Position numbers and translations under genes: made by a program. A stretch of DNA of 64,000 nt from the NCBI GenBank assembly GCA_044868695.1, contig JBIOWP010000053.1, positions 9,465-73,464 of the forward strand, in the 5' to 3' direction. This DNA comes from a bacterium. Lineage in GTDB: Bacteria; Sysuimicrobiota; Sysuimicrobiia; Sysuimicrobiales; Kaftiobacteriaceae. Each line of letters opens with the position of its first letter. The first letter of the stretch is position 1. The notes under the pieces were generated by a model. It was not told the origin of the DNA. It worked only from the letters and a program-made list of their open reading frames with translations, and did no database searches. Shown in pieces: positions 6,156 through 63,603 of the stretch.

Positions 6156-6172
6156 CTACCGGTCGGGCCCGA

Positions 6173-7249
6173 TCATCGCAGGGCGATGACGAGATCCGCG
6201 GTCACACCCAGCAGCAGCGCGACGTTTTCTATCGCCACAGGATTCTCCGGGACATAGAGCACGTCGCCGCGCTGCAACGAGACGTCGCGAGAGACATCAC
6301 CCTCACGAACGACCTTCCAGAGATCGACCGGGATGACTCTAATGGCGGCGCTCTCGCGGGCAACAACCACCGTGTTCAGCGAGACAGTAGACGTCGGGGG
6401 CTGCGTTCGTTCGCGCCTGATGATCGAGGACCGATTCAGCATGGCCCGCCGGGTTGGGCCCCCGGCCAGCGTCAGGGCCTGGAGCGCGGTGAGCGACCCG
6501 CGGACCGGCAACACTCCCGGCCGCTCCACCTGCCCCAGGACGTAGATGCGGGCCGTGGCATCTTCGGGAACCACGACGGAATCTCCCGACAACAGGGGCA
6601 GATTGAGCGAGAGGTCACCGCGCAAGAGGAGCCGTTCGAGGTCGATCAGCACCGGCGGAGCCTGCCCGCGCAACAGCCGGACTTCTCCGAGGCCGGCGTC
6701 GGGCGCCAGCCCCTCCGCGGCGGCGAGCGCGTCGAGGATCGTGGCGCCCGGTGCCAGCGCCACCACCCCGGGCCGCCGCACCTGTCCGAGCACGGACACC
6801 CGCACCCGGTGGAATGTGCGCACGATGACGGCGACTTGCGGCTCCCGGACGAATGTCGAAAACAGCTGAGTCAGCCGCTGGCGGAGCTGTTCTGGGGTCA
6901 AGCCGGCTGCCCGCACGTCCCCCACCAGGGGAAGGGAGATCACTCCGTCCGGCCGTATGATAACGATACGGGAAATCTCCGGATTGCGGAAGACAACGAT
7001 CTCGATCTCATCTTCACTTGCCAGGACATACGGCTCCTGGGCGACGGCCGGGGCTAATGGGGGGGTCATGAACATTGAGACCAGGACCAGGAACGCCAGG
7101 GTTGATCGCCAGGGCACGGGTGCACCCTCCGCTGCGTACTGGTCAGAGGATAGGGACCATCCTCCCAGGGGAGGAATCAGGTAGAATCCGGATGCGTATC
7201 GGGGAAAATCCCCTACGCCCCTACCAATCCTGGCTCCAAAGAGCCGCAT
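6173..7249 (-). CDS. polysaccharide export protein (Wza/KpsD family, Poly_export + SLBB repeats)
   Basis: PYVLASEDEIEIVVF...PDGVISLPLVGDV matches the Poly_export core. Two soluble-ligand-binding beta-grasp repeats follow (GQVRRPGV, GQVERPGV). The true start is probably internal, giving a signal peptide (LAFLVLVSMF...AVAQ). Confidence 0.8.
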   Translation of the reverse strand: MRLFGARIGRGVGDFPRYASGFYLIPPLGGWSLSSDQYAAEGAPVPWRSTLAFLVLVSMFMTPPLAPAVAQEPYVLASEDEIEIVVFRNPEISRIVIIRPDGVISLPLVGDVRAAGLTPEQLRQRLTQLFSTFVREPQVAVIVRTFHRVRVSVLGQVRRPGVVALAPGATILDALAAAEGLAPDAGLGEVRLLRGQAPPVLIDLERLLLRGDLSLNLPLLSGDSVVVPEDATARIYVLGQVERPGVLPVRGSLTALQALTLAGGPTRRAMLNRSSIIRRERTQPPTSTVSLNTVVVARESAAIRVIPVDLWKVVREGDVSRDVSLQRGDVLYVPENPVAIENVALLLGVTADLVIALR

Positions 7250-7256
7250 GGATATG

Positions 7257-7298
7257 GGGTATTTTCCGGTATCCGATTCAGGTCTTTACCTGATTCGG
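7257..7298 (+). promoter_or_regulatory. recurrent promoter-like motif, copy A (GGGTATTTTCC-N13-GGTCTT-TACCTGATTCGG)
   Basis: Sequence motif shared with copies at 11693, 13221, 13771, 15941, 17496 and 18737. Lies about 55 nt upstream of rsbR. Confidence 0.5.
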
Positions 7299-7353
7299 TT
7301 GGACACCGGTCGGTGAAATGTTATTGAAGAATCGCCGCCGAAGGAGGCCTGCC

Positions 7354-8271
7354 ATGCCTGATGCTGAAACGAGCGCGGTTGTGACCCCCGTGCCGCGAGA
7401 TGAGTCCACGACGGCGCTGCTGCGAGAGCTCGTGGCGCACCTTCGCCAGAGCCGGACCCAGCCCCGTGAGGAGTGGGCCCGGCGCATTACTGAAGCGAAA
7501 CTGCTGACCGCGATGAGCCCGGAAGAGGTGTTCGCCGAAGCCACGGCCGTGTACGACAACTACCTGGAAGCGCTGGAGACGGGGTCCATCGAGGCGCTGG
7601 AGACATACGCGAGAAACCTGTCGGAGCGGATCATCCCGCGGGGCGTCGAGACGCACGAGGTCGTGGGTATCGTCCTCCTGCTCCGCGACGTGCTGGCGCG
7701 GTCGCTGTTCGCGAAGTACCGCCGGGACTTTGACCAGTTGAACAGCATCCTCGACGCGTACGAGCCGGCGGCCAACCGGATCGCCATTACCGTGTCCGTC
7801 GGCTTTGTCCAAGAGCGCGAGCGCGTCATCCGCCAGCAGCAGGAAGCGATACGGGAACTGTCCACGCCGGTCCTGCCCGTGCGGGAACGCCTGCTGATCC
7901 TTCCAATTATTGGTATCATCGATCCACAGCGCGCGCGCCAGCTGACCGAACAGCTGCTGCGCGGCATTCGCGTGAACCGCGCGAAGGTCGTCGTGATGGA
8001 CATCACGGGCGTCCCGGCGATGGATGCCACGGTCGCGAACCACCTGGTGCAGACGGTGGAAGCGGCACGGCTGCTGGGGGCCATCGTCATCGTGACGGGC
8101 CTCGCCCCGGAGATCGCGCAGACCCTCGTCAACATCGGCGTGGATCTCAGCAAGATCATCACCGTCGGCGACATGCAGGGCGGGATTGAGGAAGCCGAGC
8201 GGCTGTTGGGCTACAAGGTTATGCCGGTCGCCGTCCTTCCGGCCAACGAGGCTCCGGAGGCCACCAGCTAG
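7354..8271 (+). CDS. rsbR: stressosome sensor protein RsbR (N-terminal globin-like domain + STAS)
   Basis: AAGGAGG RBS 7 nt before the ATG. C-terminal STAS domain (LPIIGIIDPQRARQLTEQLL...VVVMDITGVPAMD). Gene order RsbR-RsbS-RsbT-RsbX. Confidence 0.85.
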   Translation: MPDAETSAVVTPVPRDESTTALLRELVAHLRQSRTQPREEWARRITEAKLLTAMSPEEVFAEATAVYDNYLEALETGSIEALETYARNLSERIIPRGVETHEVVGIVLLLRDVLARSLFAKYRRDFDQLNSILDAYEPAANRIAITVSVGFVQERERVIRQQQEAIRELSTPVLPVRERLLILPIIGIIDPQRARQLTEQLLRGIRVNRAKVVVMDITGVPAMDATVANHLVQTVEAARLLGAIVIVTGLAPEIAQTLVNIGVDLSKIITVGDMQGGIEEAERLLGYKVMPVAVLPANEAPEATS

Positions 8272-8285
8272 CGGAGGTTGTCCAA

Positions 8286-8672
8286 ATGCCCGTCCCCATC
8301 CTCAAACAGCGTGACTATCTCATCGCGAGCATCCAGGCCGCGCTCACCGATGAGGACCTCAAGCAGCTGCGCGACGCGCTCGTGGCGCAGGTCGGACAAT
8401 TCCGCTCCCGCGGGGTCATCGTGGACGTGACCGCCCTCGACGTCATGGATTCCTTTGCCGTCCGGACGCTGCGCGACCTCGCGCACATGACGCGGCTGCG
8501 GGGGGCGGAAACGGTCATCGTGGGCATTCAGCCCGAGGTGGCCTTCGCGATGACGCAGTTAGGCCTGAAGCTTGAAGGGGTGGCCGCCGCCTTGGATCTG
8601 GAAGAGGGGCTGGCATATCTTGACCGTCGGGGCAAGCGAGCCGGAGTTCATGGGCCTCGGCCCATGAACTGA
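8286..8672 (+). CDS. rsbS: stressosome scaffold protein RsbS (STAS domain)
   Basis: 128-aa single STAS domain (GVIVDVTALDVMDS...) immediately after rsbR. GGAGG RBS. Confidence 0.85.
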   Translation: MPVPILKQRDYLIASIQAALTDEDLKQLRDALVAQVGQFRSRGVIVDVTALDVMDSFAVRTLRDLAHMTRLRGAETVIVGIQPEVAFAMTQLGLKLEGVAAALDLEEGLAYLDRRGKRAGVHGPRPMN

Positions 8673-8677
8673 TCCCC

Positions 8678-9136
8678 GTGATCTTACGTCCCAGCGCGGA
8701 TGGCGCGACACCCGTGACCGACGAAGGGCGCTCGGACACCTGGCAGGTGGTCGTCCCGATCACATCGGATCTTGACATCGTGGCCGCCCGGCAGCGCGGG
8801 CGGGTGCTGGCGCTTGACCTCGGCTACTCCGCGACGGAAGCCACGCTGGTCGCCACCGCCATCTCGGAACTGGCCCGGAACATCGTGTTGTACGCCAAAC
8901 GGGGTCAGATCGCCCTGACGAGCGCCAACGACGGCAGCCGGCGAGGGATCGTCATCGTCGCGCGCGACGACGGACCGGGGATCGCGGACGTGTCCCGGGT
9001 CACCGTGGGCGGGTACTCCACCTCGGGCGGTCTGGGCCTCGGATTGTCCGGCGTCCGGCGGTTGATGGACGAATTTGAGATTTCCAGCCAGGTGGGCAAG
9101 GGGACAACGGTGACGGTCAAGAGCTGGAAACGCTGA
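8678..9136 (+). CDS. rsbT: stressosome serine kinase RsbT (GHKL/HATPase_c anti-sigma-factor-like kinase)
   Basis: 152 aa with N and G boxes of the HATPase_c fold (ELARNIVLYA, ARDDGPGI, GGLGLGLSGVRRL). Position after rsbS. Confidence 0.85.
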   Translation: MILRPSADGATPVTDEGRSDTWQVVVPITSDLDIVAARQRGRVLALDLGYSATEATLVATAISELARNIVLYAKRGQIALTSANDGSRRGIVIVARDDGPGIADVSRVTVGGYSTSGGLGLGLSGVRRLMDEFEISSQVGKGTTVTVKSWKR

Positions 9137-9143
9137 GGGCGCC

Positions 9144-9740
9144 GTGATTGAGTGGGGCGCCGCGACGTTCACCCTCCGGGGGCAGGTCGAATCCGGCGAC
9201 CGCCATGTGGTGGCGCCGTTCGGCCCCGGGGTCCTTGTGGCCGCCATCGACGGTCTGGGGCATGGCGATGGGGCGGCCGAGGCCGCTTCGCGTGCCGCGA
9301 ACGTCCTGGAGGATGTGTCCGCCGAGTCGGTGATCGCCCTGGTCCGCCGCTGCCACGAGTCGCTGCGGCGGACGCGCGGAGTGGTGATGAGCCTCGCCTC
9401 GTTCCACGCGCCCGACGACACGATGACGTGGTTGGGCGTGGGCAACGTCGAGGGGCGACTGCTGCGCGCCGCCCGGGACTCGAATCCCCCACTTGAAACG
9501 CTCCTCCTCCGGGGCGGGGTGGTGGGGAACCAGCTCCCGCCGTTGCAGGCTGCCCTGCTGTCCGTCGCCCCGGGGGATGTGCTGGTGCTGGCGACGGACG
9601 GGGTCGCCCTGCCGCCGGTTCCCGAGGTCGGCCTCCACGACCGCCCGCAATCGATCGCGGAGAGGATTCTCGGCCGGCAGAAGAAAGAAACCGATGACGC
9701 GCTGGTGCTGGTGGTGCGGTGGGTGGGTCTGCCACGATGA
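9144..9740 (+). CDS. rsbX: PP2C-type phosphatase, RsbX-like (stressosome reset phosphatase)
   Basis: 198 aa with PP2C/SpoIIE motifs (DGLGHGDGAA, LVLATDGV). Same size and position as Bacillus RsbX. Confidence 0.75.
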   Translation: MIEWGAATFTLRGQVESGDRHVVAPFGPGVLVAAIDGLGHGDGAAEAASRAANVLEDVSAESVIALVRRCHESLRRTRGVVMSLASFHAPDDTMTWLGVGNVEGRLLRAARDSNPPLETLLLRGGVVGNQLPPLQAALLSVAPGDVLVLATDGVALPPVPEVGLHDRPQSIAERILGRQKKETDDALVLVVRWVGLPR

Positions 9741-11062
9741 CAGATGCGACGACCGAGCAGCTGACCAAATACGCCGCCGCGCTGAAGGAGTACCTCCGGG
9801 GAGGCGGCGAGCCCGCGCTGCAGCGGGCGTATGAACTCGGACGCGCCGCGCTCGCCGAGGGGGTCGGCGTGCTGGAGATGGCAGCGCTGCACCATCGGGC
9901 GATGGTGCAACTGCTGCGGTCTGAAGAGAGCCTGCCGGGGATGGTCGCGGCCGCGGGGCAGTTCTTGGTCGAGAGTCTGTCGCCATTTGAGATGACACAC
10001 CGGGGATACCGTGAAGCCAACGCGTCGCTTGAGGCCAGCGAGAAGCAGTACCGCGAGCTGTTCGAAAACGCCAACGATGCGGTGTTCACGGCTGACCTCA
10101 CCGGTCAGTTCACGTCCATCAACCGGGCGGGGGAGCAGCTGACGGGGTACGAGCGCGGTGAGGTCACGTCCATGAACTTCGCGAGCGTCGTCGTGCCCGA
10201 GCACGTGCCGATCGCCCAGCGCATGATGGAGCGGAAACTGCGTGGCGAGGTGGAACGGACCCGCTACGAAATCGAAATCAAGACCCGCGACGGACGGAGA
10301 GTTCCCGTCGAGGTGCACACCGCGCTGCTCCGCCATGACGGGCAGGCGGTGGGGATCCACGGCATTGCGCGCGATATCACGGAGCGCAAGCAGGCTGAAG
10401 AGACGCTGCGGTGGTTGAACGAGCGGTTGGAGGACGAGGCGAAGCGGATCGCGCACGCGCTGCACGATGAAGCCGGCCAGCTGCTCAGTTCCGTGCACCT
10501 CGCCCTGGAGGAGGTCGCGCGCGATCTTCCTCAGGGCGCGCGGGCGCGGATGCGGGCCGTGAAAGAGCTGCTCGACCAGATCGAAGAGGAGCTGCGGCGG
10601 CTGTCCCACGAGCTCCGGCCGACGGTGCTCGACGACCTCGGGCTGCTGCCGGCCCTGGAATTCCTCGCCGATCGCGTCGGCAGGCGCAGCGGGCTCACGA
10701 TTACGGTGCAGGACAAGACCGAGCGGCGCCTGCCGCCGTCTGTCGAGACGGCCCTCTACCGCAGCGTGCAGGAGGCGTTCAACAATATCATGCGGCACGC
10801 GAAGGCGGCGCGGGTGAAGGTAGAGATCCGGCAGGAGGCAGGGAGCGTGCTCTGCTCGGTGCGGGACGACGGCATTGGGTTCAACACCGCCGTGGTGAAG
10901 GTGCGCGAAGGCGAGCGCGGACTCGGTCTGATGGGCATCCGGGAACGCGCCGGCGCCCTGGGCGGGACGCTTGAGATCCGGTCGGCGCCGGGGAAGGGCA
11001 CCGAGCTGTCTATCTCGATTCCTCTGGAGAGTGGAGATGTCGCTGCGGATTCTGCTGGCTGA
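9737..11062 (+). CDS. sensor histidine kinase: RsbU-N-like domain + PAS + HisKA_3 + HATPase_c
   Basis: N-terminus (LTKYAAALKEYLRGGGEPALQRAYELGRAALAEGVGVLEMAALHHRAM) resembles the RsbT-binding RsbU_N helical domain. PAS region follows (YRELFENANDAVFTADLTGQFTSIN). HisKA_3 H-box is HELRPTVLDDLGLLPAL and the ATPase G-box is RDDGIGF. ATGA overlap with rsbX. Confidence 0.85.
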   Translation: MTDATTEQLTKYAAALKEYLRGGGEPALQRAYELGRAALAEGVGVLEMAALHHRAMVQLLRSEESLPGMVAAAGQFLVESLSPFEMTHRGYREANASLEASEKQYRELFENANDAVFTADLTGQFTSINRAGEQLTGYERGEVTSMNFASVVVPEHVPIAQRMMERKLRGEVERTRYEIEIKTRDGRRVPVEVHTALLRHDGQAVGIHGIARDITERKQAEETLRWLNERLEDEAKRIAHALHDEAGQLLSSVHLALEEVARDLPQGARARMRAVKELLDQIEEELRRLSHELRPTVLDDLGLLPALEFLADRVGRRSGLTITVQDKTERRLPPSVETALYRSVQEAFNNIMRHAKAARVKVEIRQEAGSVLCSVRDDGIGFNTAVVKVREGERGLGLMGIRERAGALGGTLEIRSAPGKGTELSISIPLESGDVAADSAG

Positions 11063-11669
11063 TGATCACGGAATCTTCCGCCAGGGCGTCAAGGCGCTGC
11101 TGGAGCGTGAAGGATTCCGCGTGGACGGCGAGGCCGGGGACGGCCACGCCGCGATTCAGCTCGCCGAGCAGCTGACTCCCGACGTCGCGGTCCTCGACCT
11201 CACCATGCCGCTGTTGAACGGCCTCGACGCGGCCAGGGAAATTGCGCGCCTGTCCCCGCGGACGCGGACGATCCTGCTGACGATGCATACCGAGGATCCG
11301 TATGTCGCCAAGGCGCTCGCGGCCGGCATCCGCGGGTACGTGCTGAAGAGCCAGGCGGCGGAGGACCTGGTGCAGGCCATCCGGGAGGTGTCCAAAGGCG
11401 CCGTGTATCTGAGTCCCGGCGTCTCGGAGGCCGTCGTCGAAGCGTACCTGGCGAGACGCGAGCTGCCCCGCGATCCGCTGACCTCGCGCGAGCGCCAGGT
11501 CCTGCAGCTCATCGCCGAGGGCAAGACCACCAAGGAGGTGGCCGGCCTCCTGGGCGTGAGCGTGAAGACGGCGGAGTCCCACCGGATGAGGATCATGTCC
11601 AAGCTCGATATCCACGAGACCGCCGGGCTGGTCCGCTACGCCATCCGTCAGGGACTGCTGCCGCCCTGA
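11037..11669 (+). CDS. NarL/LuxR-family response regulator (REC + LuxR HTH), copy 1
   Basis: ILLADDH...VAVLDLTMP receiver domain and LTSRERQVLQLIAEGKTTKEVA HTH. Overlaps the kinase gene end. Confidence 0.9.
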   Translation: MSLRILLADDHGIFRQGVKALLEREGFRVDGEAGDGHAAIQLAEQLTPDVAVLDLTMPLLNGLDAAREIARLSPRTRTILLTMHTEDPYVAKALAAGIRGYVLKSQAAEDLVQAIREVSKGAVYLSPGVSEAVVEAYLARRELPRDPLTSRERQVLQLIAEGKTTKEVAGLLGVSVKTAESHRMRIMSKLDIHETAGLVRYAIRQGLLPP

Positions 11670-11692
11670 CCCGCCCGCAGAAAAGCGAATCA

Positions 11693-11732
11693 GGGTTTTC
11701 CCTATGCGAGATTCAGGCGTTTACCCGATTGG
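11693..11732 (+). promoter_or_regulatory. recurrent promoter-like motif, copy B (GGGTTTTCC-N14-GGCGTT-TACCCGATTGG)
   Basis: Near-identical to copy A. Lies 84 nt upstream of the second response-regulator gene. Confidence 0.5.
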
Positions 11733-11815
11733 ACCCCCCAGCTAGATCCTCGTAGCGTTACGTATAAGACTGGCACGACATCTGTGTGGACGTTGCGAAG
11801 GAGTGACGCCGTCCC

Positions 11816-12448
11816 GTGCCACTAAGAGTGGTCATCGCCGACGACCATGCGATCGTCCGTCAAGGCGTCCGGGGCCTGCTGGAGCGCGAGGGCTTCGATG
11901 TCGTCGCGGAAGCGGGCGACGGCAAAGAGGCGGTCCGGCTGACGCAGGAGCTCGGTCCCGACGTGGCGGTCCTCGACTTCGTCATGCCGGTGCAGGACGG
12001 CCTCGACACGGCCCAGGAGATCTCGCAAGTGTCACCGGGGACCCGGGCGATCCTGCTGACGATGCATGCTGAGGAACCCTACGTCGTCAGAGCCCTGCAG
12101 GCGGGGATCAGGGGTTACGTCCTCAAATCACAGACCGCGGTTGAGCTGGTGGGCGCCATTACTGAAGTCATGCGGGGCGGGACCTACTTCAGCCCGGGCG
12201 TATCCGGCGCCATCGTCCAGGCGTATCAGGCCCGCAATGAACCTCCCTCCGATCACCTGACCCCGCGGGAACGTCAGGTGCTCCAGCTGGTTGCCGAGGG
12301 CAAGACTACCAAAGAGGTGGCTCAACTGCTGGGCATCAGCGCCAAGACGGCCGACTCCCACCGCAGCCGCATCATGTCCAAGCTGGACATTCATGAGACG
12401 GCCGGGCTGGTCCGCTACGCCATCCGCCAGGGGCTCATCAGGCTGTAA
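11816..12448 (+). CDS. NarL/LuxR-family response regulator, copy 2 (tandem paralog, ~80% aa identity to copy 1)
   Basis: GTG start. VVIADDH, VAVLDFVMP, and a C-terminal region nearly identical to copy 1 (TTKEVA.LLG.S.KTA.SHR.RIMSKLDIHETAGLVRYAIRQGL). Confidence 0.9.
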   Translation: MPLRVVIADDHAIVRQGVRGLLEREGFDVVAEAGDGKEAVRLTQELGPDVAVLDFVMPVQDGLDTAQEISQVSPGTRAILLTMHAEEPYVVRALQAGIRGYVLKSQTAVELVGAITEVMRGGTYFSPGVSGAIVQAYQARNEPPSDHLTPRERQVLQLVAEGKTTKEVAQLLGISAKTADSHRSRIMSKLDIHETAGLVRYAIRQGLIRL

Positions 12449-12471
12449 AGAGAATCACCGATCCTCCTTAA

Positions 12472-12494
12472 GGCGTCCTCCCGATTGAATCCCC
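12472..12494 (+). promoter_or_regulatory. partial copy of the recurrent motif (GGCGTC-CTCCCGATTGAATCCCC; 3' half only)
   Basis: Matches the downstream half of copies A and B. Lies 33 nt upstream of the ANTAR regulator gene. Confidence 0.3.
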
Positions 12495-12525
12495 GCCTAC
12501 GCGACCGTTACCATAGTCTAAACGT

Positions 12526-13191
12526 ATGCAAACTCTGCGCGTGCTCATTGCCGAAGATAAGCGTCTTGTCGCGACGCGTCTGAGCTCGCAGCTCGAGAGT
12601 CTCGGGCATGAGGTCGCGGGCGTCGTACAAGATGGCCGCGACTTAGTGGAGGCCGCCTGGCGCCTGCTGCCGGACGTGATTATCGTCGGACTGCCGCTGC
12701 CCGTGCTGGACGGGATCGAGGCGTCGCGCGCTATTCTCACCAGACATGCGATTCCCATTATCGTGCTTGCCGGGTACACCTCCGCAGGTCTTGTCCGGCG
12801 GGCCCAGGAAGCCGGTGTGCTCACGTTCCTCGCCTGGCCGACTGACACCAGCGCGCTGGGGTCCGCGATTTATGTCGCACTGACCCGCTTCCAGGAGCTG
12901 CAGGTACTGTCCGAGCAGTCGGGCGACCTCCGGCAGGCGTTGCGGGCGCGCGCGACGGTGGAGCGGGCAAGGAAGATGTTGATGCGGCGCCTTGACCTCA
13001 CGGAGGCCGATGCCTTCAGGTACATGCGCCGCCAAAGTCAGACCTCGGGCCTGCCGGTCCGAGACCTGGCAGCGAATATGCTGATGGTGGGAGAGTTTCT
13101 GTTTGGGAAGCTCGACACGGTCCGCCGTCTCGGAACGATCCTCGACGTGCTCAGGCAGCGCGAGGCAGTCGGTCCACAGCGGGTCGCTTGA
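12526..13191 (+). CDS. ANTAR-domain response regulator (REC + ANTAR RNA-binding antiterminator, AmiR/NasT-like)
   Basis: Receiver domain (VLIAEDKRL...VIIVGLPLPVLDG) and C-terminal ANTAR helices (VERARKMLMRRLDLTEADAFRYMRRQSQTSGLPVRDLAANML). Confidence 0.85.
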   Translation: MQTLRVLIAEDKRLVATRLSSQLESLGHEVAGVVQDGRDLVEAAWRLLPDVIIVGLPLPVLDGIEASRAILTRHAIPIIVLAGYTSAGLVRRAQEAGVLTFLAWPTDTSALGSAIYVALTRFQELQVLSEQSGDLRQALRARATVERARKMLMRRLDLTEADAFRYMRRQSQTSGLPVRDLAANMLMVGEFLFGKLDTVRRLGTILDVLRQREAVGPQRVA

Positions 13192-13220
13192 AGGTTCCCC
13201 CATAGTCCTTCCGCGCTCCT

Positions 13221-13259
13221 GGGTTTTCCCACCCGCCGGGTAGGGAAGCACCTGATTGG
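13221..13259 (+). promoter_or_regulatory. recurrent promoter-like motif, copy D (GGGTTTTCC-N13-GGGAAG-CACCTGATTGG)
   Basis: Sequence motif. Upstream of the small ORF at 13413 and the secreted propeller gene. Confidence 0.45.
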
Positions 13260-13412
13260 TCACGTCGGAGTCCAGCCCCTAGTGTGGGTTCGGAGAGCAC
13301 CCTCATAAGCTGAGGCCGTTACGGGTGAGCCCAGCCGGGCGTGTGAGTATGTGCGCGTTAAGGGTAGGGGCCGATCTCTGCGCGTGACGTCAAGGGTTCT
13401 GAGAACGATGCG

Positions 13413-13712
13413 ATGGGCACGCTGGTTATTTCGTTTGTCTCTGCGGTCACCGGGGCAGGGTACTCCGAGGGCGACGATGCAAAGATCACGATCGTCGTCC
13501 CGCGGTCGCACGCCTATCTTGCTGACCTGCTCGCCAGGGCCTTCGAAGGACGTGAGGACATCGAGGTCGTCGTGGACCGGCGGCGCGGCGACCGGCGGGC
13601 CCAGCAGCGGCCTGTCTCCGTCGATCGCCGGCGGAAAGATCGGCGCCGGCGCAAAGAGGAAGTCGTTGAGGTCGTAGTCGGCCGGCCGGGATGGCTGTCT
13701 GATACTTCGTAA
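13413..13712 (+). CDS. hypothetical small protein with Arg/Asp-rich C-terminal repeats (VDRRRGDRR...DRRRKDRRRR)
   Basis: 99-aa ORF on the coding strand opposite a likely spurious 783-aa antisense ORF. Protein family not recognised. Confidence 0.35.
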   Translation: MGTLVISFVSAVTGAGYSEGDDAKITIVVPRSHAYLADLLARAFEGREDIEVVVDRRRGDRRAQQRPVSVDRRRKDRRRRKEEVVEVVVGRPGWLSDTS

Positions 13713-13770
13713 GGAGCGGAGCCGCCATCTGAACGCCTATGACGCGGTCAGAACCGCGCGTGGGTGGTAG

Positions 13771-13810
13771 GGGAACTTCCCGCCGGTGAGTCGGAGATTT
13801 ACCTGATTGG
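13771..13810 (+). promoter_or_regulatory. recurrent promoter-like motif, copy E (GGGAACTTCC-N12-GGAGAT-TTACCTGATTGG)
   Basis: Sequence motif 63 nt upstream of the ATG at 13873. Confidence 0.45.
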
Positions 13811-13872
13811 CCGCGTCCGGGGAACACGCTACACCCAAACCGGGTAGACGTCTGCATCGGTGGAGGAATGGC

Positions 13873-15831
13873 ATGCGACCGGCGATCCTGCGGAGTGCGG
13901 TGTGCGTCCTTTTCGTGAGCCTCCTGGCGGGTGGCCCGCCGGCCTCGGCGTGGGACGGAGTGTCTCATGCCGTCGTCAAGGTGTGGAATACCGCCGTTCC
14001 TATTCCCCCCTCCTTGAGCCTCGGGCTGACGCCGGGCGAGTCCGTCGAGGATCCCGCCGGCCTCACAGACCATGGCACAAGTTTCCCCACGATCGTGACC
14101 GTGTATGCCCGCAGCAGCCATCCGGGGGGTCTGTCGGGAGTGTCGTATTGGAATCCCGAGGGGAATGTCTTCGCGTGGTATGGGAAGACGTTTGGAGGGC
14201 TGCCCGCGGCGCAAATGCCACCGCCGCCGCCCAGCAGCGGGTTCCCAGGCGGGGTCGATATCAACCGGGGCGGCGGACCGGTCCTGGCAGGCGGACCATT
14301 CGGAACATCGTTTGGACCGGGTGATGTCTGGATCGGCGGAGCGCAGAATGAGCCGCTGATCGTGCAGATGGCCGGCTCGGACCCGCTGACCGGCGCCGGC
14401 AGGTTCCGATCCTACGGGACCAACAACCCGCTGCTGCCGCCGTCCGGCCAGGCCTTTGGGGTTCAGGTCGACGAAGCCACCGGGCACGTCTTCGTCGCCC
14501 AGACCTTCGAACGCCGGATCAGCCGGGTGAATCCTCCGACGGCGATCGTCACCATGTGGGACATGGGGACCTGCAACGGGTCGACGTGCGGCAGCCCCGT
14601 CTATGTGACGGTCGACACGTCGGGGCGCCCCTACGCGACGACGGTCGGATCGACGTTTGGGGACGGCGTCGTTCGCGTGAACCGCGGCGCAGACGGCGTG
14701 CTGGGGCTCAACCCCCTCACCGGCGTCTCTGACGACACCATCAGCCTGTGGGCGCTCCCCAGCCAGCCTGCATACCGCATCCCGCCGCTGTTCCTGACGA
14801 ATCCGGAGGAGAACCCGAACGGGCTCATTACCGCGGATGCGGATGGCAATGTGTGGATCTCCGAAAGCGGTGCCCACAAGGTGGCACGGCTGAACCCTGC
14901 CACGAACCAGATCTGCGAATACACCACGTCTGGAATGCGCAACCCGCAGCAGATCACGACGACGGGGTCCGGCAGCTCGCTGCAGGTGTTCTTCACGGAG
15001 GGGGAGGGCAACTCGGTCAGTGTGCTCACGCAGGGCGAAGCCGACCTGGCGCCGTTCCCCGACCGGGCGTGCGTCAGTGTCACGCCCCTCACCTTTCCGA
15101 CGCGTGTGGTCGACGTGACGACGCAGACCTTTGACGAACTGGTGCTGCCTCTGCGGACGGCGATCGTGCCGACGGTCCATCACGTGGCCTCGGTCGGCGG
15201 ATCGGGCATCGCGCGGTTCTCGCCTATGCCGAACCCGCTGCTGTCCGTTGACGGGGACCCGATCGGGGATGCGGGCAACGGTTTCCCGTCGGGGATGACC
15301 GGTGTGTACGGGGTGAATCGGGTCGCGGGCGCGTACCTCGATCTGCAGAATGGCAACAAGCACTTTCAGGTGGAAAGCCGCCTCATCACCGCCCCGCCGC
15401 CATCCCCGCCCGGCGGGCTGCCCGGCCGCATGACCGGTGGCGGGAGGCTCGCCACCGCGGACGGGACGAAGGTGACATACGGGCTCGTGCTGCGGTGCGC
15501 GGCGGATCAACAGGGCAAAGACGCGCTGCAGGTGAACTGGAGCGAGGGCAACAGGTTCCATCTCACGCGGGTCAACGCGGCCTCGTGCAGTGACGATCCG
15601 TCCATCAGCCCCGATCCTCCCCCTGCGTCGTTCGACACTCACTCGGGCCGCGGGACAGGCCGCTACAATGGCGTAGACGGCGCCACGGCGGAGTGGACGT
15701 TCACCGACGCCGGAGAACCGGGGAACGACGATACCGTCCGGCTCGTCATCCGGAACGCCTCGGGCACGGTTGTGCTCGTGGTCTCGGGCCGGCTCACGAG
15801 AGGGAACAATCAGGCGCACGACGCCAGGTAG
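13873..15831 (+). CDS. secreted beta-propeller protein with Vgb (streptogramin-lyase)-like repeats
   Basis: Signal peptide (MRPAILRSAVCVLFVSLLAGGPPASA). Repeats such as NPNGLITADADGNVWISESGAHKVARLNP and TGHVFVAQTFERRISRVNP fit the Vgb-lyase propeller blade pattern. A terminator follows. Confidence 0.7.
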   Translation: MRPAILRSAVCVLFVSLLAGGPPASAWDGVSHAVVKVWNTAVPIPPSLSLGLTPGESVEDPAGLTDHGTSFPTIVTVYARSSHPGGLSGVSYWNPEGNVFAWYGKTFGGLPAAQMPPPPPSSGFPGGVDINRGGGPVLAGGPFGTSFGPGDVWIGGAQNEPLIVQMAGSDPLTGAGRFRSYGTNNPLLPPSGQAFGVQVDEATGHVFVAQTFERRISRVNPPTAIVTMWDMGTCNGSTCGSPVYVTVDTSGRPYATTVGSTFGDGVVRVNRGADGVLGLNPLTGVSDDTISLWALPSQPAYRIPPLFLTNPEENPNGLITADADGNVWISESGAHKVARLNPATNQICEYTTSGMRNPQQITTTGSGSSLQVFFTEGEGNSVSVLTQGEADLAPFPDRACVSVTPLTFPTRVVDVTTQTFDELVLPLRTAIVPTVHHVASVGGSGIARFSPMPNPLLSVDGDPIGDAGNGFPSGMTGVYGVNRVAGAYLDLQNGNKHFQVESRLITAPPPSPPGGLPGRMTGGGRLATADGTKVTYGLVLRCAADQQGKDALQVNWSEGNRFHLTRVNAASCSDDPSISPDPPPASFDTHSGRGTGRYNGVDGATAEWTFTDAGEPGNDDTVRLVIRNASGTVVLVVSGRLTRGNNQAHDAR

Positions 15832-15845
15832 CGGCATGCGGCAAT

Positions 15846-15884
15846 CCCGCAGGCGCCGGAGAGTGGGCGCCTGCGGTCTTTTTC
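15846..15884 (+). terminator. rho-independent terminator (GC hairpin CCCGCAGGCGCC/GGCGCCTGCGG + TCTTTTTCT)
   Basis: Inverted repeat followed by a T-run, immediately after the stop at 15831. Confidence 0.65.
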
Positions 15885-15940
15885 TCTAGGGACATTCCCC
15901 GATGGCGTTTGATGACTTCTCCCTCGAACGTTCTCCAGCC

Positions 15941-15969
15941 GGTTTTCCAGGCTTCGCCTGATTGGTCTT
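15941..15969 (+). promoter_or_regulatory. recurrent promoter-like motif, copy F (GGTTTTCC-N8-CCTGATTGGTCTT)
   Basis: Sequence motif. The GGTTT to GGTCTT spacing is 17 nt, as in the other copies. Confidence 0.45.
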
Positions 15970-16137
15970 CACGCTACGGTTAGGCACAGTGAGTGATGGA
16001 ATGCGCAAGCGATCCGGACCCCCGAGGGGCCGGGAAGGAGGGATTGCGTCAACCAGTCACCGTAGGTCTCCGGTCCTTTGCATCGGGAGGTCGGACCGGC
16101 GCAGGGTCGTGTCGCACATGTCGAGAGGAGGAACGCA

Positions 16138-16782
16138 ATGAGCACGATGAGAGTCATGCACAGCCACGGCGCGCGCTGGGGTGTCGGTGCGCTGACCGTG
16201 GTCTTGACAATCTTCCTGGCGGTGCCCGCTCCTGTGAGCGCGCAGCTGCCGCTCCCACTGCCGGGAAGCGGAGGGGGGTCAGGGCCTCAGGCGACCGTAG
16301 TGCAGGCCGCCGTGTTCGGATCGACCGCCACGCTGGCCGATACCGGGACCCTCACGAGCGCCAGTGATCCTCTGGAAGCGTCGCTGGATGCAGGCAGCGC
16401 ATTGGGAGTCGTGAACGGGGAAGTCCTGCACGCCGTCACGATCGGCTGGTCCGATCAGGTCGTCTCTGAAGCTTCGCTCGGGAACCTCACCATCGCGGGA
16501 GGCGGGCTTAGCATCATTGCGGACTTCGTGATGGCCCGGGCGCAGTCTGTCTCGGGATCCGGGAGCAGCGGTGGCTCCCTCATCGAGAACCTGTCGATCA
16601 ACGGGGCGCCAGTCCAGCTCACCGGAGTGAATCAGACGATCGCCCTGCTGGGGGGCCTCACCCTGGTCATCAACGAGGTGCAACAGTCGGGGAGCTCGGT
16701 CACGGCCAACGCCCTGCACCTCACGTCGCTGGATGGTCTCGTCGACATCGTGGTCGCGTCGGCGAGGGCGGGTGGGTTCTGA
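16138..16782 (+). CDS. hypothetical secreted Gly/Ser/Thr-rich protein
   Basis: Strong RBS (GAGAGGAGGAACGCA before the ATG). Signal peptide (GALTVVLTIFLAVPAPVSAQ). No recognised domain. Confidence 0.6.
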   Translation: MSTMRVMHSHGARWGVGALTVVLTIFLAVPAPVSAQLPLPLPGSGGGSGPQATVVQAAVFGSTATLADTGTLTSASDPLEASLDAGSALGVVNGEVLHAVTIGWSDQVVSEASLGNLTIAGGGLSIIADFVMARAQSVSGSGSSGGSLIENLSINGAPVQLTGVNQTIALLGGLTLVINEVQQSGSSVTANALHLTSLDGLVDIVVASARAGGF

Positions 16783-16805
16783 TGAGAGGACAGGAGGAGT
16801 GGACG

Positions 16806-17393
16806 ATGCGTAAGGTCATCTCATCTCTACTGGTGCTCGTCGCCGTTGTGGCGATGCAGGTGGTAGTTCCGACCCCCGCGCCTGCCCACGTGATCCCCAA
16901 ACCATGTGATTTCACGACCGGCGGCGGATTTGTTTTCAACCCCTTCCCCAATGGAGCGAGGATCAACTTCGGCCTCGTCGGGGGGTGTAAGCACGGCTCG
17001 TTCTTCGGCCATGTGAACATCGTTGATCGGAGTTTCCCCCTTGGCCAGCTGCACGTGAGCAGCACGAGCATTGACGCGTACTTCGATCCGATAATTTCAG
17101 GATCGGGGTACCGTGATATCTGTGGCACGGCCAGGACGAATCTCGTCGGCGATGTGAAGTTTCGCGTGCGAACGAAGGACAACGGAGAACCCGGAGGCGA
17201 TGACCGCTTTGGGTTCAAACTGGCCAAGAATGGCGCAACGTACACTGTCAGCGTTCGGGAGCTGGGTCCCCCCGGCCGGACGGGCGGCGGTGGCAACATC
17301 CAGCTGCACAAGCCCAACCCGTCGACCACGGGACCGGACTTTGTAGACGAGATCGTTGCGTGCGGTGCGGATGACTCTGGATTGGGATTCTGA
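16806..17393 (+). CDS. hypothetical secreted protein
   Basis: AGGAGGAG RBS. Signal peptide (VISSLLVLVAVVAMQVVVPTPAPA). Starts 24 nt after the previous stop. Confidence 0.6.
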   Translation: MRKVISSLLVLVAVVAMQVVVPTPAPAHVIPKPCDFTTGGGFVFNPFPNGARINFGLVGGCKHGSFFGHVNIVDRSFPLGQLHVSSTSIDAYFDPIISGSGYRDICGTARTNLVGDVKFRVRTKDNGEPGGDDRFGFKLAKNGATYTVSVRELGPPGRTGGGGNIQLHKPNPSTTGPDFVDEIVACGADDSGLGF

Positions 17394-17495
17394 CCGACTC
17401 GAGTCCCAAGGTTGTCGTCGCTCAACTATCGGTCCCCGGGGGGCCCGCATGGCGAGCCTCCCGGGGCAGTTTCTTGGGTGGTTCAAATTCCAGCC

Positions 17496-17544
17496 GAGTT
17501 CAGGGGTTTTCCTCGCTGCACGTCCGGCGTCCACCTGATACCGG
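17496..17544 (+). promoter_or_regulatory. recurrent promoter-like motif, copy G (GAGTTCAGGGGTTTTCC-N13-GGCGTC-CACCTGATACCGG)
   Basis: Sequence motif 72 nt upstream of the ATG at 17614. Confidence 0.45.
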
Positions 17545-17613
17545 CGGAGGAGGGGAGCCGCCTATTCTCGGGCTAACGCGAAGGCGCTCCCCGAAGAGAG
17601 GGATGGCTGAACG

Positions 17614-18555
17614 ATGACGAGGCATAGCGGTCGACCGTGGAAACGATTTGGGCTACTCCTGATCAGCATGTTTCAAATCATCCCCGTGCTGCCGGGGCTC
17701 AACGTCGGCGCGACGAACGTCGCCTTCGCGCCCGGGGACGTGGTTCTCTCGTTCGAGAACGGGTCTGTACAGTGGCGGGCTCCCGATGGGGCCCTCAAGG
17801 GAGTGCTCGCCGGCACGGTGCCAGGCCCTGCAGAAGGCATGCGGTTCGATGCGGCCGGCAACCTGTACGTGACGCGCTGGTGCGCGCATCCCTGCTGGAC
17901 CTCCGACACCGTTGAGAAGTTCAATACCAGTGGCGTCTGGCAAGGGACGTTCGGCAGCGGGTACAACTGCCGGCCCCACGCGCTCGCCTTCGACGCCGCC
18001 GGCAACGCGTACGTCGGCCAGGCCGACTGCACCGGTGACGTCTTGATGTTTTCGAGGGAGGGAAACCTTCAGGCCACTTATGCGGTCGCTCCCGAGAACA
18101 ACGGCTCGTTCTGGGTCGACCTCGCCCCCGACGGCTGTACGCTCTTCTACACGTCGTGGGGTCCCAACGTAAAGCGGTTCAACGTGTGCACGAACAGGCA
18201 GCTTGCCGACTTCAACCGCGTCCCGCTGCCCGGCGGTGAGACCCATGGACTCCGCGTCCTGCCTGGTGGCGGCGTGTTGGTCAGCAGCGGCGCCGTGATC
18301 GCGCGCCTTGATGCCTCCGGGGTTCTCGTCCAGACCTACAGTGTGCCGACGGGTGAGCCCCAGTACTGGGCCGGGCTTGACCTGGTGGGTGACGGCACGT
18401 TTTGGGCCGCCAACTATTACGCGTCCATCTTCTTCAACAACGCCAATGTGTACAGGTTTGACCTGACCACCGGAGCGATTCGGGGAAGCTTCAACACCGG
18501 GACCCCGGACCGTGATGTCGTCGATGTCCGCGTGAGCCGCGGGACGGGTCCGTAG
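17614..18555 (+). CDS. secreted beta-propeller (NHL/SMP-30-like) protein
   Basis: N-terminal hydrophobic signal. Repeated DAAGNLYV / DAAGNAYVG / LAPDGCTLFYTS blade-like segments. Confidence 0.6.
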   Translation: MTRHSGRPWKRFGLLLISMFQIIPVLPGLNVGATNVAFAPGDVVLSFENGSVQWRAPDGALKGVLAGTVPGPAEGMRFDAAGNLYVTRWCAHPCWTSDTVEKFNTSGVWQGTFGSGYNCRPHALAFDAAGNAYVGQADCTGDVLMFSREGNLQATYAVAPENNGSFWVDLAPDGCTLFYTSWGPNVKRFNVCTNRQLADFNRVPLPGGETHGLRVLPGGGVLVSSGAVIARLDASGVLVQTYSVPTGEPQYWAGLDLVGDGTFWAANYYASIFFNNANVYRFDLTTGAIRGSFNTGTPDRDVVDVRVSRGTGP

Positions 18556-18578
18556 GACCTATCACAGGGAGGCTGTTC

Positions 18579-18710
18579 ATGGGAAGTGTCCGGGCGTCGG
18601 TTCTGCTTGTCATTGCCGGCACGGTGTCTCTGGTGCTCGCACTGGGCCTGCGCCGCGGGTCCGGGAGCGGGTACCACCACCCTCCCGATGCGCTAGCCGT
18701 CTGGGGCTGA
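18579..18710 (+). CDS. 43-aa single-pass membrane peptide (not in supplied ORF track)
   Basis: AGGGAGG RBS 6 nt before the ATG. Translates to MGSVRASVLLVIAGTVSLVLALGLRRGSGSGYHHPPDALAVWG. Confidence 0.35.
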   Translation: MGSVRASVLLVIAGTVSLVLALGLRRGSGSGYHHPPDALAVWG

Positions 18711-18736
18711 TTACGGGGTTCACGCATGGCAACGTT

Positions 18737-18779
18737 GGGGTTTTTCCCCAATGGGCTTCCGGACTTCACCCTATTCCTG
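18737..18779 (+). promoter_or_regulatory. recurrent promoter-like motif, copy H (GGGGTTTTTCC-N13-GGACTT-CACCCTATTCCTG)
   Basis: Sequence motif upstream of the NusG-like gene that heads the polysaccharide locus. Confidence 0.4.
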
Positions 18780-19106
18780 ACCATGATGGATGGCTCTTAT
18801 CTTCTAAGCCGTGACGCCGGAGCAGTCGGTGGGCTCCCCCCGCACGGCGATCGCGGGTTCAGCGAGTGGCCGGGCAAGTGAGGCGGACGGCGCGCGGGGT
18901 GGATCTCACGGCTGGCGCCCTTGGTCGTGACCGCGGACCTCGTCCTCCAAGCGGCGCCGTCCGTCACTCCCGGCAGAAGGACCGGCCTGCGGCGCGGGCA
19001 CGAGCCGCGCTCCGCGGGTCGCGACAACCAGGCGACGATGACGCACATGGGTAGGCTTGGGTCACCAACTCAAACCGAAGGGGGCGAAGCCTTGCCGCGC
19101 GTCGGG

Positions 19107-19655
19107 ATGCTCGCCACGGCGGACGTCGACACGCCGCGCGTCCCCACGGTAGGGGCGCCGCCCTGGTACGCATTGTGGACGCGCAGCCACTGCGAGCGGC
19201 TGGTCTTCGACCATCTCGTCGCCAAGGGGTTCGACGCGTTCCTGCCGGTGGTCGACATCTGGTCGGTTCGCGCCGGCGTCCGCCGCCGCATCCAGATGCC
19301 CATGTTTCCCGGCTACCTCTTTCTCCGCCACGCGATGGACAAGTACAGCTACATCGAGGTCCGGAAAGCCCGTGGCCTCGTGACTGTGCTGGGGGAGAGC
19401 TGGGATCGCCTCGCCCCGGTGCCCGACGATGAGGTCGAGGCGATTCAGGCCGTCGTGCGCTCACAGATGCCCGTGCTGCCCTACGCGTATCTGCGCGACG
19501 GACAGCGGGTCCGTATTGTCCGCGGGCCGCTCGCCGATGTTGAGGGGTTCCTCGTGCGGCAGAAGCCGAACGCAGGACTCCTCGTCCTCTCCGTCCAGTT
19601 GCTCCAGCGAAGCGTCGCCGTCGAGGTGGACTGCACATGGGTAGTCCCGGCGTAG
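19107..19655 (+). CDS. NusG-family transcription antiterminator paralog (UpxY/LoaP/RfaH-like; NGN + KOW)
   Basis: NGN domain (WYALWTRSHCERLVFDHLVAKGFDAFLPV...MFPGYLFLR) and KOW motif (GQRVRIVRGPLADVEGFLV). Start is uncertain; the ORF extends to 18921. First gene of a long + strand array. Confidence 0.75.
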   Translation: MLATADVDTPRVPTVGAPPWYALWTRSHCERLVFDHLVAKGFDAFLPVVDIWSVRAGVRRRIQMPMFPGYLFLRHAMDKYSYIEVRKARGLVTVLGESWDRLAPVPDDEVEAIQAVVRSQMPVLPYAYLRDGQRVRIVRGPLADVEGFLVRQKPNAGLLVLSVQLLQRSVAVEVDCTWVVPA

Positions 19656-22695: not shown

Positions 22696-23319
22696 ATGGC
22701 GACGTCCGGACAGCGCAGGCAGATCGTCGACGAGTACTGCAGAACGCGGGGCCGCCAGGCGGCCGATGCCGTGGTGATGGCCTACTGGCCGCTGCTGCGG
22801 CGGTGGACGCATCCGTACCACAGTGTGCGGGTTCCCCGCGACGACATCCTGCAGATCGCCGCCTGCGGGCTGCTCAAATCTCTGGCGCGCTTCGATCCGC
22901 GCCGGGCCAGCTTCGACACGTATGCCCGCCATTGCGTGCTCGGCGAGGTCCGCCACTTCCTGCGCGACCACAGCGCCGTCGTGCGGGTGCCGCGATCGAT
23001 GCGGGGGCGCGGCGAAGGTCCGCTGATGCAGTCGCTGGATGCGATGCTGGACGACGCGGAATCCGGCCGGCCGCCGCTACAGATCGGACGGGACGACCCT
23101 GGGGTGGGGCAGGCGGAAGCCCGCGTCCAGCTCTGGGAACTGCTGCGCGACCTCAACCCGCGCCAGGGCGCCGCACTGTTGCTGTGGGTCGGGTTCCAGC
23201 TGCCGCAGCAGACCGTCGCCGACGTCCTGGGCGTGCCGCAGAACGCGGTCAGCCGGCTGTGCAGCCGGGCCCTGCAAACCCTGCGCGCGCGGGCGGGCAC
23301 GAGCCCCAACCGCAGGTGA
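22696..23319 (+). CDS. group-3 (SigB/SigF/FliA-type) alternative sigma factor
   Basis: Region 2 (ILQIAACGLLKSLARFDPRRASFDTYARHCVLGEVRHFLRD) matches the SigB/F pattern D-L-I-Q-x-G-x-x-G-L-x-x-A-x-x-x-F-D...F-x-x-Y-A-x-x-x-I-x-G-E-I-x-R-x-L-R-D. Region 4 HTH is present (LPQQTVADVLGVPQNAVSRLCSRAL). Confidence 0.75.
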   Translation: MATSGQRRQIVDEYCRTRGRQAADAVVMAYWPLLRRWTHPYHSVRVPRDDILQIAACGLLKSLARFDPRRASFDTYARHCVLGEVRHFLRDHSAVVRVPRSMRGRGEGPLMQSLDAMLDDAESGRPPLQIGRDDPGVGQAEARVQLWELLRDLNPRQGAALLLWVGFQLPQQTVADVLGVPQNAVSRLCSRALQTLRARAGTSPNRR

Positions 23320-63307: not shown

Positions 63308-63603
63308 GGCGGTCTCCTTTTGCGGAAGACCACCACTCCGGGGGGACCCAAAAACACAACCCCTTCTTCGGTAGCCCGGCTGTCAGAAGGACCTGACCCG
63401 TGGCTTTGCGTCCCCGTCTCGCGACGGGTTTGCGTTTTCGGAAAGAGGTCTATCCGCTGCTATTCGATTTACCGGTCAATTCACGGGGCCGACACCCAAC
63501 GATTTGAGGTGTTTACCCTATGAACGTATCCGGCATTTACCTTGCTATCTCATCATGGAAACACCTGACTGTCAACCGCAACTGGAGTTCGTATAACAGC
63601 TAG

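Follow-up and report, generated by a model that had tools for sequence, protein, structure and literature searches.

A 64,000-nucleotide stretch of contig JBIOWP010000053.1, hereafter the window, comes from an uncultured soil lineage of the Kaftiobacteriaceae and carries a recurrent intergenic motif, most copies of which lie around a stressosome gene cluster. Copies of this motif are built from tandem inverted-repeat boxes followed, in most cases, by a −10 hexamer at a fixed distance, and the box accompanies the same gene module in other phyla. Judged from sequence, the copies are likely to be upstream activating regions, each holding two operators for a NarL-type response regulator, at promoters of the primary-sigma type (TAnnnT −10 hexamer, no conserved −35 element) that would be under stressosome control. 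The protein most likely to bind them is the phosphorylated dimer of RR1, the NarL-family regulator encoded by the module itself, possibly together with its paralogue RR2.

A composite motif between genes

The first-pass annotation had described a promoter-like motif, beginning with GGGTTTTCC, upstream of a series of plus-strand genes, and had proposed that it defines a candidate regulon. The copies were recovered where they had been placed, with small corrections. A GGGTTTTCC-like element followed by CCYGAT(T) is found on the + strand at 7257, 11693, 13221, 13771, 17504 (previously given as 17496) and 18737. The supposed 3′ half-copy at 12472 does comprise the right half only, yet has a −10 hexamer at the canonical distance, and the copy at 15941 is present but aberrant, its left element lying just 8 nt from CCTGATTGG. 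The listed copies are co-oriented with their genes on the + strand, as had been said, but a minus-strand copy at 7215–7146 had been missed, and a three-box arrangement at 63505–63568, upstream of a small MarR-like gene, had also been overlooked.

The composite pattern TTCC-N20-22-CCYKAT has 10 matches in the 64 kb, seven of which are true motif copies, against 0.90 ± 0.90 expected, with none of 100 dinucleotide shuffles reaching 10. Only this composite pattern is significant, the single elements being barely above chance in the window (GGGTTTTCC alone, 17 matches against 9.4 expected; CCTGATTGG with one mismatch allowed, 18 against 12.9). An nhmmer profile built from 15 copies gave nothing strong elsewhere in the window, and weak matches only at 15945, 12467 and 63506. 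A 17-nt weight matrix of the box gave 18 window matches at a 9-bit threshold, against 7.4 expected; a match at 28932 (13.7 bits), solitary and intragenic, was taken as chance, and those at 46737, 54464 and 62602 were treated in the same way.

All copies lie between genes, according to our own gene calls, and are oriented toward the downstream gene. The copy before the gene for a Wza-like exporter falls within a mechanical open reading frame (ORF; 6173–7249, − strand) that is judged to be over-extended, the gene probably starting at GTG 7117, after a GGAGGG ribosome-binding site. Read from this codon, the protein has a signal-peptide-like N-terminus. This copy stands back to back with, and diverges from, that of rsbR, which starts at ATG 7354, preceded by GAAGGAGG. 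In scans of the window no true copy was found within genes or in random orientation, and the flanks of the copies are not conserved, so that neither the coding-region density nor the random orientation of a REP-like element is seen. Enrichment, intergenic placement and orientation together support the view that the motif is promoter-associated and gene-oriented, and that it defines a candidate regulon.

Paired inverted repeats and a fixed −10 hexamer

Each copy consists of two tandem inverted-repeat boxes with the consensus TCRGGT-GTTY-ACCYKA (6-4-6), their centres 22–24 bp apart and the upstream (distal) box the weaker of the two. The GGGTTTTCC element is the centre of the distal box, as in TCAGGG-tttt-CCCTAT at 11690–11705. 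Base counts over 37 boxes are T33 C30 R G34 G34 T24 / G T36 T32 Y / A31 C37 C36 Y K A35, and the arms of these boxes show a palindrome correlation of 0.88, a value that none of 5000 permutations attains (null 0.05 ± 0.24). Perfect palindromes of 16–20 bp occur in loci L084 (TATCAGGTGTTTACCTGATA), L018 (TAGGGTGTTTACCCTA) and L023 (TCAGGTGTTTACCTGA). The 6-4-6 palindrome is an inverted repeat within the 14–20 bp suited to a dimer with helix-turn-helix domains of the GerE/LuxR type.

Copies from the window and from the two closest bins, L002 and L005, were aligned by anchoring on CCYGAT. This revealed a TAnnnT hexamer 22–23 nt after CCYGAT in 14 of the 17 scored copies (binomial P ~3e-31; background 0.0021 per position), a count that rises to 15 by hand when the ANTAR-regulator copy is anchored at 12480, with TACCAT at gap 23. 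The hexamer stands at the same gap in all 10 further copies from outside the seed (metagenome contigs L081, L083 and L087, all close relatives). A −35 position of 6 nt and a spacer of 17 nt together fill such a gap of 22–23 nt. No sequence is conserved at that −35 position in the aligned copies, and a scan of 7000–19000 for consensus sigma-70 promoters of the TTGACA/TATAAT type found nothing, which we read as support for −35-less promoters and not as promoter absence. The start site had earlier been placed about 7 nt after GGnnTT; since TAnnnT is fixed 22–23 nt after CCYGAT, the likely start lies about 45 nt further downstream. If transcription begins about 7 nt after the −10 hexamer, the box centres would lie near −44.5 and −68, and with this start the boxes would stand upstream of, or overlap, a weak −35 position, which is compatible with activation.

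Association with a stressosome module

Domain assignments were made with Pfam and NCBIfam. Genes for RsbR, RsbS, RsbT and an RsbX-like PP2C phosphatase are followed, in that order, by a histidine kinase in which an RsbU_N domain is fused to the kinase, and then by RR1 (Table 1). Neither RsbV, RsbW nor SigB was detected in the cluster by Pfam or NCBIfam, and therefore the stressosome output here is a two-component system. Orthologues of RR1 are 55–87% identical in every module locus examined, and its closest solved homologues are VraR/LiaR, NarL, DevR and DesR, regulators whose dimers bind inverted repeats. In the recognition helix, the motif KT(A/V/I)(E/D)(S/T)HR is conserved in all orthologues and in RR2.

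Loci for comparison were gathered by searching genome and metagenome collections with the kinase. The bins closest to the window, L002 (labelled ANGP1) and L005 (labelled ‘Armatimonadetes 13_1_40CM_64_14’), have a kinase that is ~70% identical. Boxes stand in L084 and L087 ahead of wza, of RR2, of the ANTAR regulator, of a small ORF and of the NusG-like gene, with a single palindromic box before rsbR, and L081 and L086 keep most of the same box positions. Around the boxes of these relatives the intergenic sequence has diverged. At the ANTAR-regulator promoter the distal position is degenerate in the window; the corresponding promoters of L002, L081 and L087 have a full copy.

Beyond these relatives, the gene order RsbR-S-T-X, RsbU_N-kinase, NarL regulator is found in more than 40 loci, with source labels that include Steroidobacteraceae and other Gammaproteobacteria, Terriglobia, Nitrospirales, Binatia, Vicinamibacterales and many soil contigs. 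A weight matrix made from the window lineage only has a + strand match just upstream of rsbR in 31 of 45 other-lineage module loci (labelled Gammaproteobacteria/Steroidobacteraceae, Terriglobia, other taxa and soil metagenome contigs), against 0.33 expected from the control density in kinase relatives that lack the module. Strong boxes occur at this position in other lineages, for example TCGGGTGTTTACCCTA, and in proteobacterial loci of 11–21 kb a box of at least 20 bits is usually the sole one, just upstream of rsbR. In these other lineages TGnTA follows the box by 45–47 nt in 16 of 19 loci. The site thus co-occurs with the regulator gene, including upstream of the regulator's own operon. As the box travels with the module, and the NarL regulator is the only DNA-binding protein that the RsbR-S-T-X/kinase/regulator modules encode, RR1 is the candidate binder. 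Involvement of the NarL-type regulators at 11037 and 11816 had been a secondary suggestion of the first-pass annotation, and association across module loci makes it the reading favoured here.

A second repeat is seen in Steroidobacteraceae-type loci (L019 7393–7424, L024 658–691 and about 10 similar): a perfect, conserved palindrome with box-like arms, ATCAGGTG-N8-CACCTGAT, overlapping the stop codon of the gene that precedes rsbR (protein end ...TYQVKIGT). The nhmmer matches on the minus strand, some 100 nt before the rsbR box of such loci, correspond to this N8 palindrome, the arm spacing of which is different, and were not counted as boxes. L103 and L106, which come from other phyla, each have a box immediately behind the regulator gene (L103 5556; L106 7622). 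The L103 box precedes a protein (5929–6579) without a Pfam family, in which a PEP-CTERM-like C-terminal signal was read by eye; that of L106 precedes a stand-alone RsbU_N-domain protein (7701–8084), followed by further LuxR-type regulators.

Table 1. Motif copies in the window, with the genes of the stressosome module and the regulators discussed in the text
Feature	Position	Strand	Details
Wza-like exporter copy	7147–7215	−	full copy; 45.3 bits, best nhmmer match; distal 7215–7200 TAGGGG-attt-TCCCCG; proximal 7192–7177 TCCGGA-ttct-ACCTGA; −10 TATCCT 7152–7147
rsbR operon copy	7255–7324	+	26.5 bits; distal 7255–7270 TGGGGT-attt-TCCGGT; proximal 7278–7293 TCAGGT-cttt-ACCTGA
RR2 copy (second NarL-type regulator)	11690–11758	+	four relatives keep it in the matching intergenic region; distal 11690–11705 TCAGGG-tttt-CCCTAT; proximal 11713–11728 TCAGGC-gttt-ACCCGA; −10 TAGCGT 11753–11758
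ANTAR-regulator copy	12469–12514	+	proximal box only, 12469–12484 TAAGGC-gtcc-TCCCGA; −10 TACCAT 12509–12514
Arg-rich 99-aa ORF copy	13217–13285	+	distal 13217–13232; proximal 13240–13255 GTAGGG-aagc-ACCTGA; −10 TAGTGT 13280–13285
Secreted beta-propeller copy	13768–13835	+	distal 13768–13783 TAGGGG-aact-TCCCGC; proximal 13791–13806 TCGGAG-attt-ACCTGA
Choice-of-anchor-P copy (gene 16138), atypical	15887–15965	+	boxes 15887–15903 TAGGGA-catt-CCCCGAT and 15946–15961 TCCAGG-cttc-GCCTGA
Copy of hypothetical secreted gene 17614–18555	17500–17568	+	distal 17500–17515 TCAGGG-gttt-TCCTCG; proximal 17523–17538 TCCGGC-gtcc-ACCTGA; −10 TATTCT 17563–17568
Copy of NusG-like (UpxY/RfaH/LoaP-like) gene and polysaccharide operon	18735–18803	+	distal 18735–18750 TTGGGG-tttt-TCCCCA; proximal 18758–18773 TCCGGA-cttc-ACCCTA; −10 TATCTT 18798–18803
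Remote MarR-like copy	63505–63597	+	three boxes: 63505–63521 TGAGGT-gttt-ACCCTAT; 63529–63545; 63552–63568 (centre inverted)
RsbR	7354–8271	+	STAS
RsbS	8286–8672	+	STAS
RsbT	8678–9136	+	kinase
RsbX-like PP2C phosphatase	9144–9740	+	
Stressosome module	7354–9740	+	Pfam domains
Histidine kinase	9737–11062	+	RsbU_N + PAS + HisKA_3 + HATPase
RR1, NarL-family response regulator	11037–11669	+	candidate box-binding protein
RR2, NarL-family paralogue of RR1	11816–12448	+	behind its own box promoter; recognition helix nearly identical to that of RR1
Short sigma factor	22696–23319		207 aa; regions 2 and 4 only, no region 3; SigB/F/G-like region 2

Proposed mechanism and predicted targets

In the mechanism that we propose, stress would release RsbT from the RsbR/RsbS stressosome, and free RsbT would bind the RsbU_N domain of the histidine kinase, a step inferred from domain architecture and from published work on RsbU. 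The kinase would then phosphorylate RR1, presumably at Asp54 (a position counted by hand in an alignment), and RR1~P, seated on the boxes, would recruit RNA polymerase to the −35-less promoters.

The predicted targets are given here in the gene order of the cluster. The minus-strand Wza-like exporter gene, itself a predicted target, is followed by those for RsbR, RsbS, RsbT, the RsbX-like phosphatase, the kinase, RR1, RR2 and the ANTAR regulator; the box before rsbR would place the module's own operon under positive feedback, and RR2 and the ANTAR regulator would also be controlled. Next come the small Arg-rich ORF and then genes for a secreted beta-propeller that carries a post-COAP-1 domain, for one protein each of the choice-of-anchor-P and post-COAP-1 kinds, and for a hypothetical secreted protein; the choice-of-anchor-P, post-COAP-1 and beta-propeller proteins would form a secreted group of targets. 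The cluster continues with a NusG paralogue, Wzz/GNVR, a tyrosine-kinase ATPase, a sugar transferase, the short sigma factor and a Wzy-type ligase. Here the predicted target is the NusG-like antiterminator gene and, assuming a single operon, the Wzz, tyrosine-kinase, sugar-transferase, sigma and Wzy genes behind it. The MarR-like gene would be regulated too: its ORF (63619–63900; 93 aa, winged-helix) lies downstream of the remote copy, 45 kb from the cluster, and is a probable remote member of the regulon. The box centres of that copy are 23–24 bp apart, and TATAAC (63592–63597) follows ACCTGA by 23 nt.

Several points weigh against control by RR1 acting as an activator. The link between RR1 and the boxes is one of association, the organisms being uncultured, and the figure of 31 in 45 is too high as a count of independent observations, since many of the loci from other lineages are closely related to each other; no clear box was found in several deeper lineages (L007, L010, L014 and L092). 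With the start site assumed above, the proximal centre at −44.5 lies 2–3 bp upstream of the position in textbook class II activators, the sites of which are centred at −41.5 or −42.5. Three window copies have no clean TAnnnT at the canonical gap: that of rsbR, where the sole −10 candidate is TGTTAT (7319–7324; gap 25, G for A), that of the propeller gene, with a −10-like TACACC (13830–13835; gap 22), and that of the choice-of-anchor-P gene, which has none. The boxes themselves also differ. In the window lineage, distal right arms (TCCY) and proximal right arms (ACCYGA) are systematically distinct, and therefore one protein may not account for both. Further, the centre GTTY has the same orientation in nearly all boxes, a feature that a symmetric dimer site does not need.

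Alternative explanations

The difference between distal and proximal boxes, together with the third box at 63552–63568 in inverted orientation, lends something to the most durable alternative, in which the boxes are operators of a different protein (the MarR-like product of 63619 being one candidate), or in which RR1 and RR2 serve as repressor or anti-repressor and not as class II-type activators; both the binder and the sign of regulation are, after all, inferred. We nevertheless regard this as rather unlikely. Across phyla the box accompanies a module whose sole DNA-binding protein is the NarL regulator, and boxes centred near −44.5 and −68, ahead of a −10 hexamer and in promoters with no −35, would fit an activator. 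Repressor sites, by comparison, usually overlap the −10 element or the start site. Among characterised relatives the closest is NreC, which activates transcription in its phosphorylated form.

The first-pass annotation had favoured a promoter for an alternative, group-3 sigma factor of the SigB/SigF type, possibly the product of 22696, with GGTTT(T) as −35 and GGnnTT, 13–17 nt further on, as −10. The resemblance is real: GTTTWC-N14-15-GGnnnT can be read in most copies, and the proteobacterial copy in L011 has GTTTAC-N15-GGGTAT, a perfect SigB/F consensus. The sigma factor encoded at 22696 does have a SigB/F/G-like region 2, and the module derives from the stressosome that controls SigB. This likeness to the SigB promoters of Bacillus and the SigF promoters of Mycobacterium, in a GTTT-N14-17-GG pattern and in the stressosome sensing module, is superficial, however, since GTTTACC, from the 3′ half of the distal box, and GGG/GGT, from the 5′ half of the proximal one, are separated by about 24 bp and produce SigB-like spacing automatically. 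A −35 of the GTTTaa type appears as GTTTTC or GTTTAC in most copies, where it forms the centre and right arm of the inverted repeat, and it deviates to ATTTTC at 7257 and ACTTCC at 13771, and is missing at 12472. The proposed −10 is conserved only at its GG and its final T's: the counts over the 37 boxes (G34 G34 T24 G22 T36 T32) agree with GGGTAT at three of six positions. Conservation extends beyond both hexamers, and a sigma promoter gives no role to the best-conserved stretch, ACCYGATT, to the palindromy or to the fixed TAnnnT 22–23 nt downstream. In the ANTAR copy the left element is absent, yet the right box and the −10 are kept.

Nor does the candidate factor itself fit well. The 22696 protein reaches 101 bits, below the SigB/F/G cutoff of 234, and it lacks region 3. 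No RsbV or RsbW partner for it was found in the cluster, and neither a cognate sigma factor nor RsbV/RsbW partner-switching proteins are encoded with the module. Among the module loci examined none has a homologue of it, and relatives lack it at the matching loci; the box is kept in the modules of other phyla, where kinase and response regulator form the output. Its gene adjoins those of the sugar transferase and the Wzy-type (Wzy_C) ligase in the NusG-led polysaccharide run, and it may belong to a lower tier of the cascade. A SigB/SigF-like promoter is very improbable as the explanation of these copies. That tandem regulator boxes are able to mimic such a promoter calls for caution in motif-based promoter prediction near stressosome genes.

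Least credible of all, and deserving of almost no weight, is that the palindromes are RNA or DNA hairpins (for instance leaders that the cluster's ANTAR regulator or its NusG-like antiterminator would read) or REP-like repeats: the boxes are self-complementary around a 4-nt centre, and arm complementarity is slightly higher than in shuffles (0.75 against 0.69), but the −10 hexamer lies downstream, so that transcripts from these promoters probably do not include the boxes, many boxes have non-pairing arms (11 C/T pairs at one arm position), proximal left arms are often degenerate, an Rfam search of 6900–19500 at permissive E-values gave only two sub-threshold chance matches with no family that fits, and, unlike REP or MITE elements, the copies never occur within genes or in random orientation and have no conserved flanks.

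Neighbouring genes and other features

The Arg-rich 99-aa ORF (13413–13712) is preceded by its own box promoter, with a leader of about 120 nt, and has an Arg-rich tail (DRRRGDRR...RRRKDRRRRKEE); it has no family match. A strong intrinsic terminator (15847–15876; 11-bp stem with 10 GC pairs, then TCTTTTTCTC, to 15886) follows the beta-propeller gene, and the box at 15887 begins directly after it. The secreted targets come from linked NCBIfam families: choice-of-anchor P at 16138–16782, and post-COAP-1 both at 16806–17393 and at the C-terminus of the propeller protein (13873–15831). Between the gene at 17614 and the NusG promoter lies a predicted 43-aa membrane peptide (18579–18710; MGSVRASVLLVIAGTVSLVLALGLRRGS...LAVWG), the counterpart of which in L005 is a 56-aa ORF (14092–14262) with its own box-bearing promoter.

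Significance

Stressosomes are well understood only where they control SigB. For a stressosome with two-component output, the locus described here provides the first concrete candidate for a DNA target, one that recurs across phyla, together with a testable operator sequence and a prediction of positive autoregulation that is repeated in several phyla. Its target list points to polysaccharide export and synthesis and to secreted proteins.

A broader scheme, which we put forward as speculative and would not ourselves expect to hold in full, is that stressosome, RsbU_N-kinase, NarL regulator and their own operator make up a self-contained autoregulatory cassette found across phyla, and that in this uncultured soil lineage the cassette has grown into a local regulon of about 10 promoters linking stress sensing to matrix and secreted proteins. 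Two box variants, GGG-TTTT-CCC in the distal position and TCAGGY-NTTY-ACCYGA in the proximal one, would here be read by RR1 and RR2, and the ANTAR regulator, NusG-like antiterminator, short sigma factor and MarR-like protein would act as a second-tier cascade. Should the scheme hold, it would define for the first time a DNA target and a regulon of a stressosome with non-sigma output.

Comparison with known systems

As a kind of system, a response-regulator operator with its regulon is already known, and the box and candidate regulon found here are a further case. Sites for NarL follow the 7-2-7 consensus TACYYMT-N2-AKRRGTA, in which the C-rich arm stands to the left of the G-rich one. The boxes resemble these in the family of the regulator, in being dimeric inverted repeats and in their ACC/GGT cores; in contrast, their arm order is opposite, their spacing is different, and TACCYGA fits the heptamer at five of seven positions. 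The likeness to TACYYMT that had been pointed out earlier is therefore inexact.

The nearest characterised operator is that of NreC, a statement about operators and not about the RR1 and NreC sequences. The NreBC system is known from Staphylococcus carnosus and Bacillus licheniformis, and NreC~P activates transcription. NreC operators, as they appear in Supplementary Fig. 11b of PMC9918477, have the form TAGGG...CCCTA and occur two per promoter; to the extent of that figure, the boxes share a GC-cored inverted repeat, with the G-arm left and the C-arm right, and the presence of two operators at each promoter. Core and tandem arrangement of the NreC form TAGGG-N4-5-CCCTA are the same here, but the proximal boxes, TCAGGY-N4-ACCYGA, have a GG...CC spacing of 6. 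Literal matches of NreC type occur in L018 (TAGGGTGTTTACCCTA) and in the window at 11690 (TCAGGGttttCCCTAT) and 13768 (TAGGGGaactTCCC). Both systems also have a cytoplasmic kinase with PAS and HisKA_3 domains and a NarL-family regulator, and a gammaproteobacterial RsbU_N-kinase is annotated as NreB by NCBI. This is nevertheless not NreBC proper. Here the GGG-CCC core spacing is 4–6 and the arms extend outward (TC..GGT / ACC..GA). Inspection of the kinase sequence found no cysteine in the PAS region that could ligate an Fe-S cluster as in NreBC, and therefore the kinase has no Fe-S oxygen or sulfide sensor. Input would come instead through the N-terminal RsbU_N domain and the stressosome, and the predicted targets are polysaccharide, secreted-protein and regulatory genes and not those for nitrate/nitrite or sulfide.

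On the sensing side, the closest parallels are the non-sigma stressosomes, such as RsbRSTX-D1-D2 of Vibrio vulnificus and that of Moorella with its RsbU_N-GGDEF protein, in which RsbR, RsbS, RsbT and RsbX are likewise followed by an RsbU_N signalling protein, with no RsbV, RsbW or SigB. RsbU_N-kinases beside stressosome genes, and the association of these with two-component genes, have been documented as a gene-neighbourhood pattern, and the published accounts consulted report no DNA target, operator or regulon for the two-component output. To that pattern the present locus adds a candidate operator, a predicted autoregulation and a putative local regulon of some 10 promoters.

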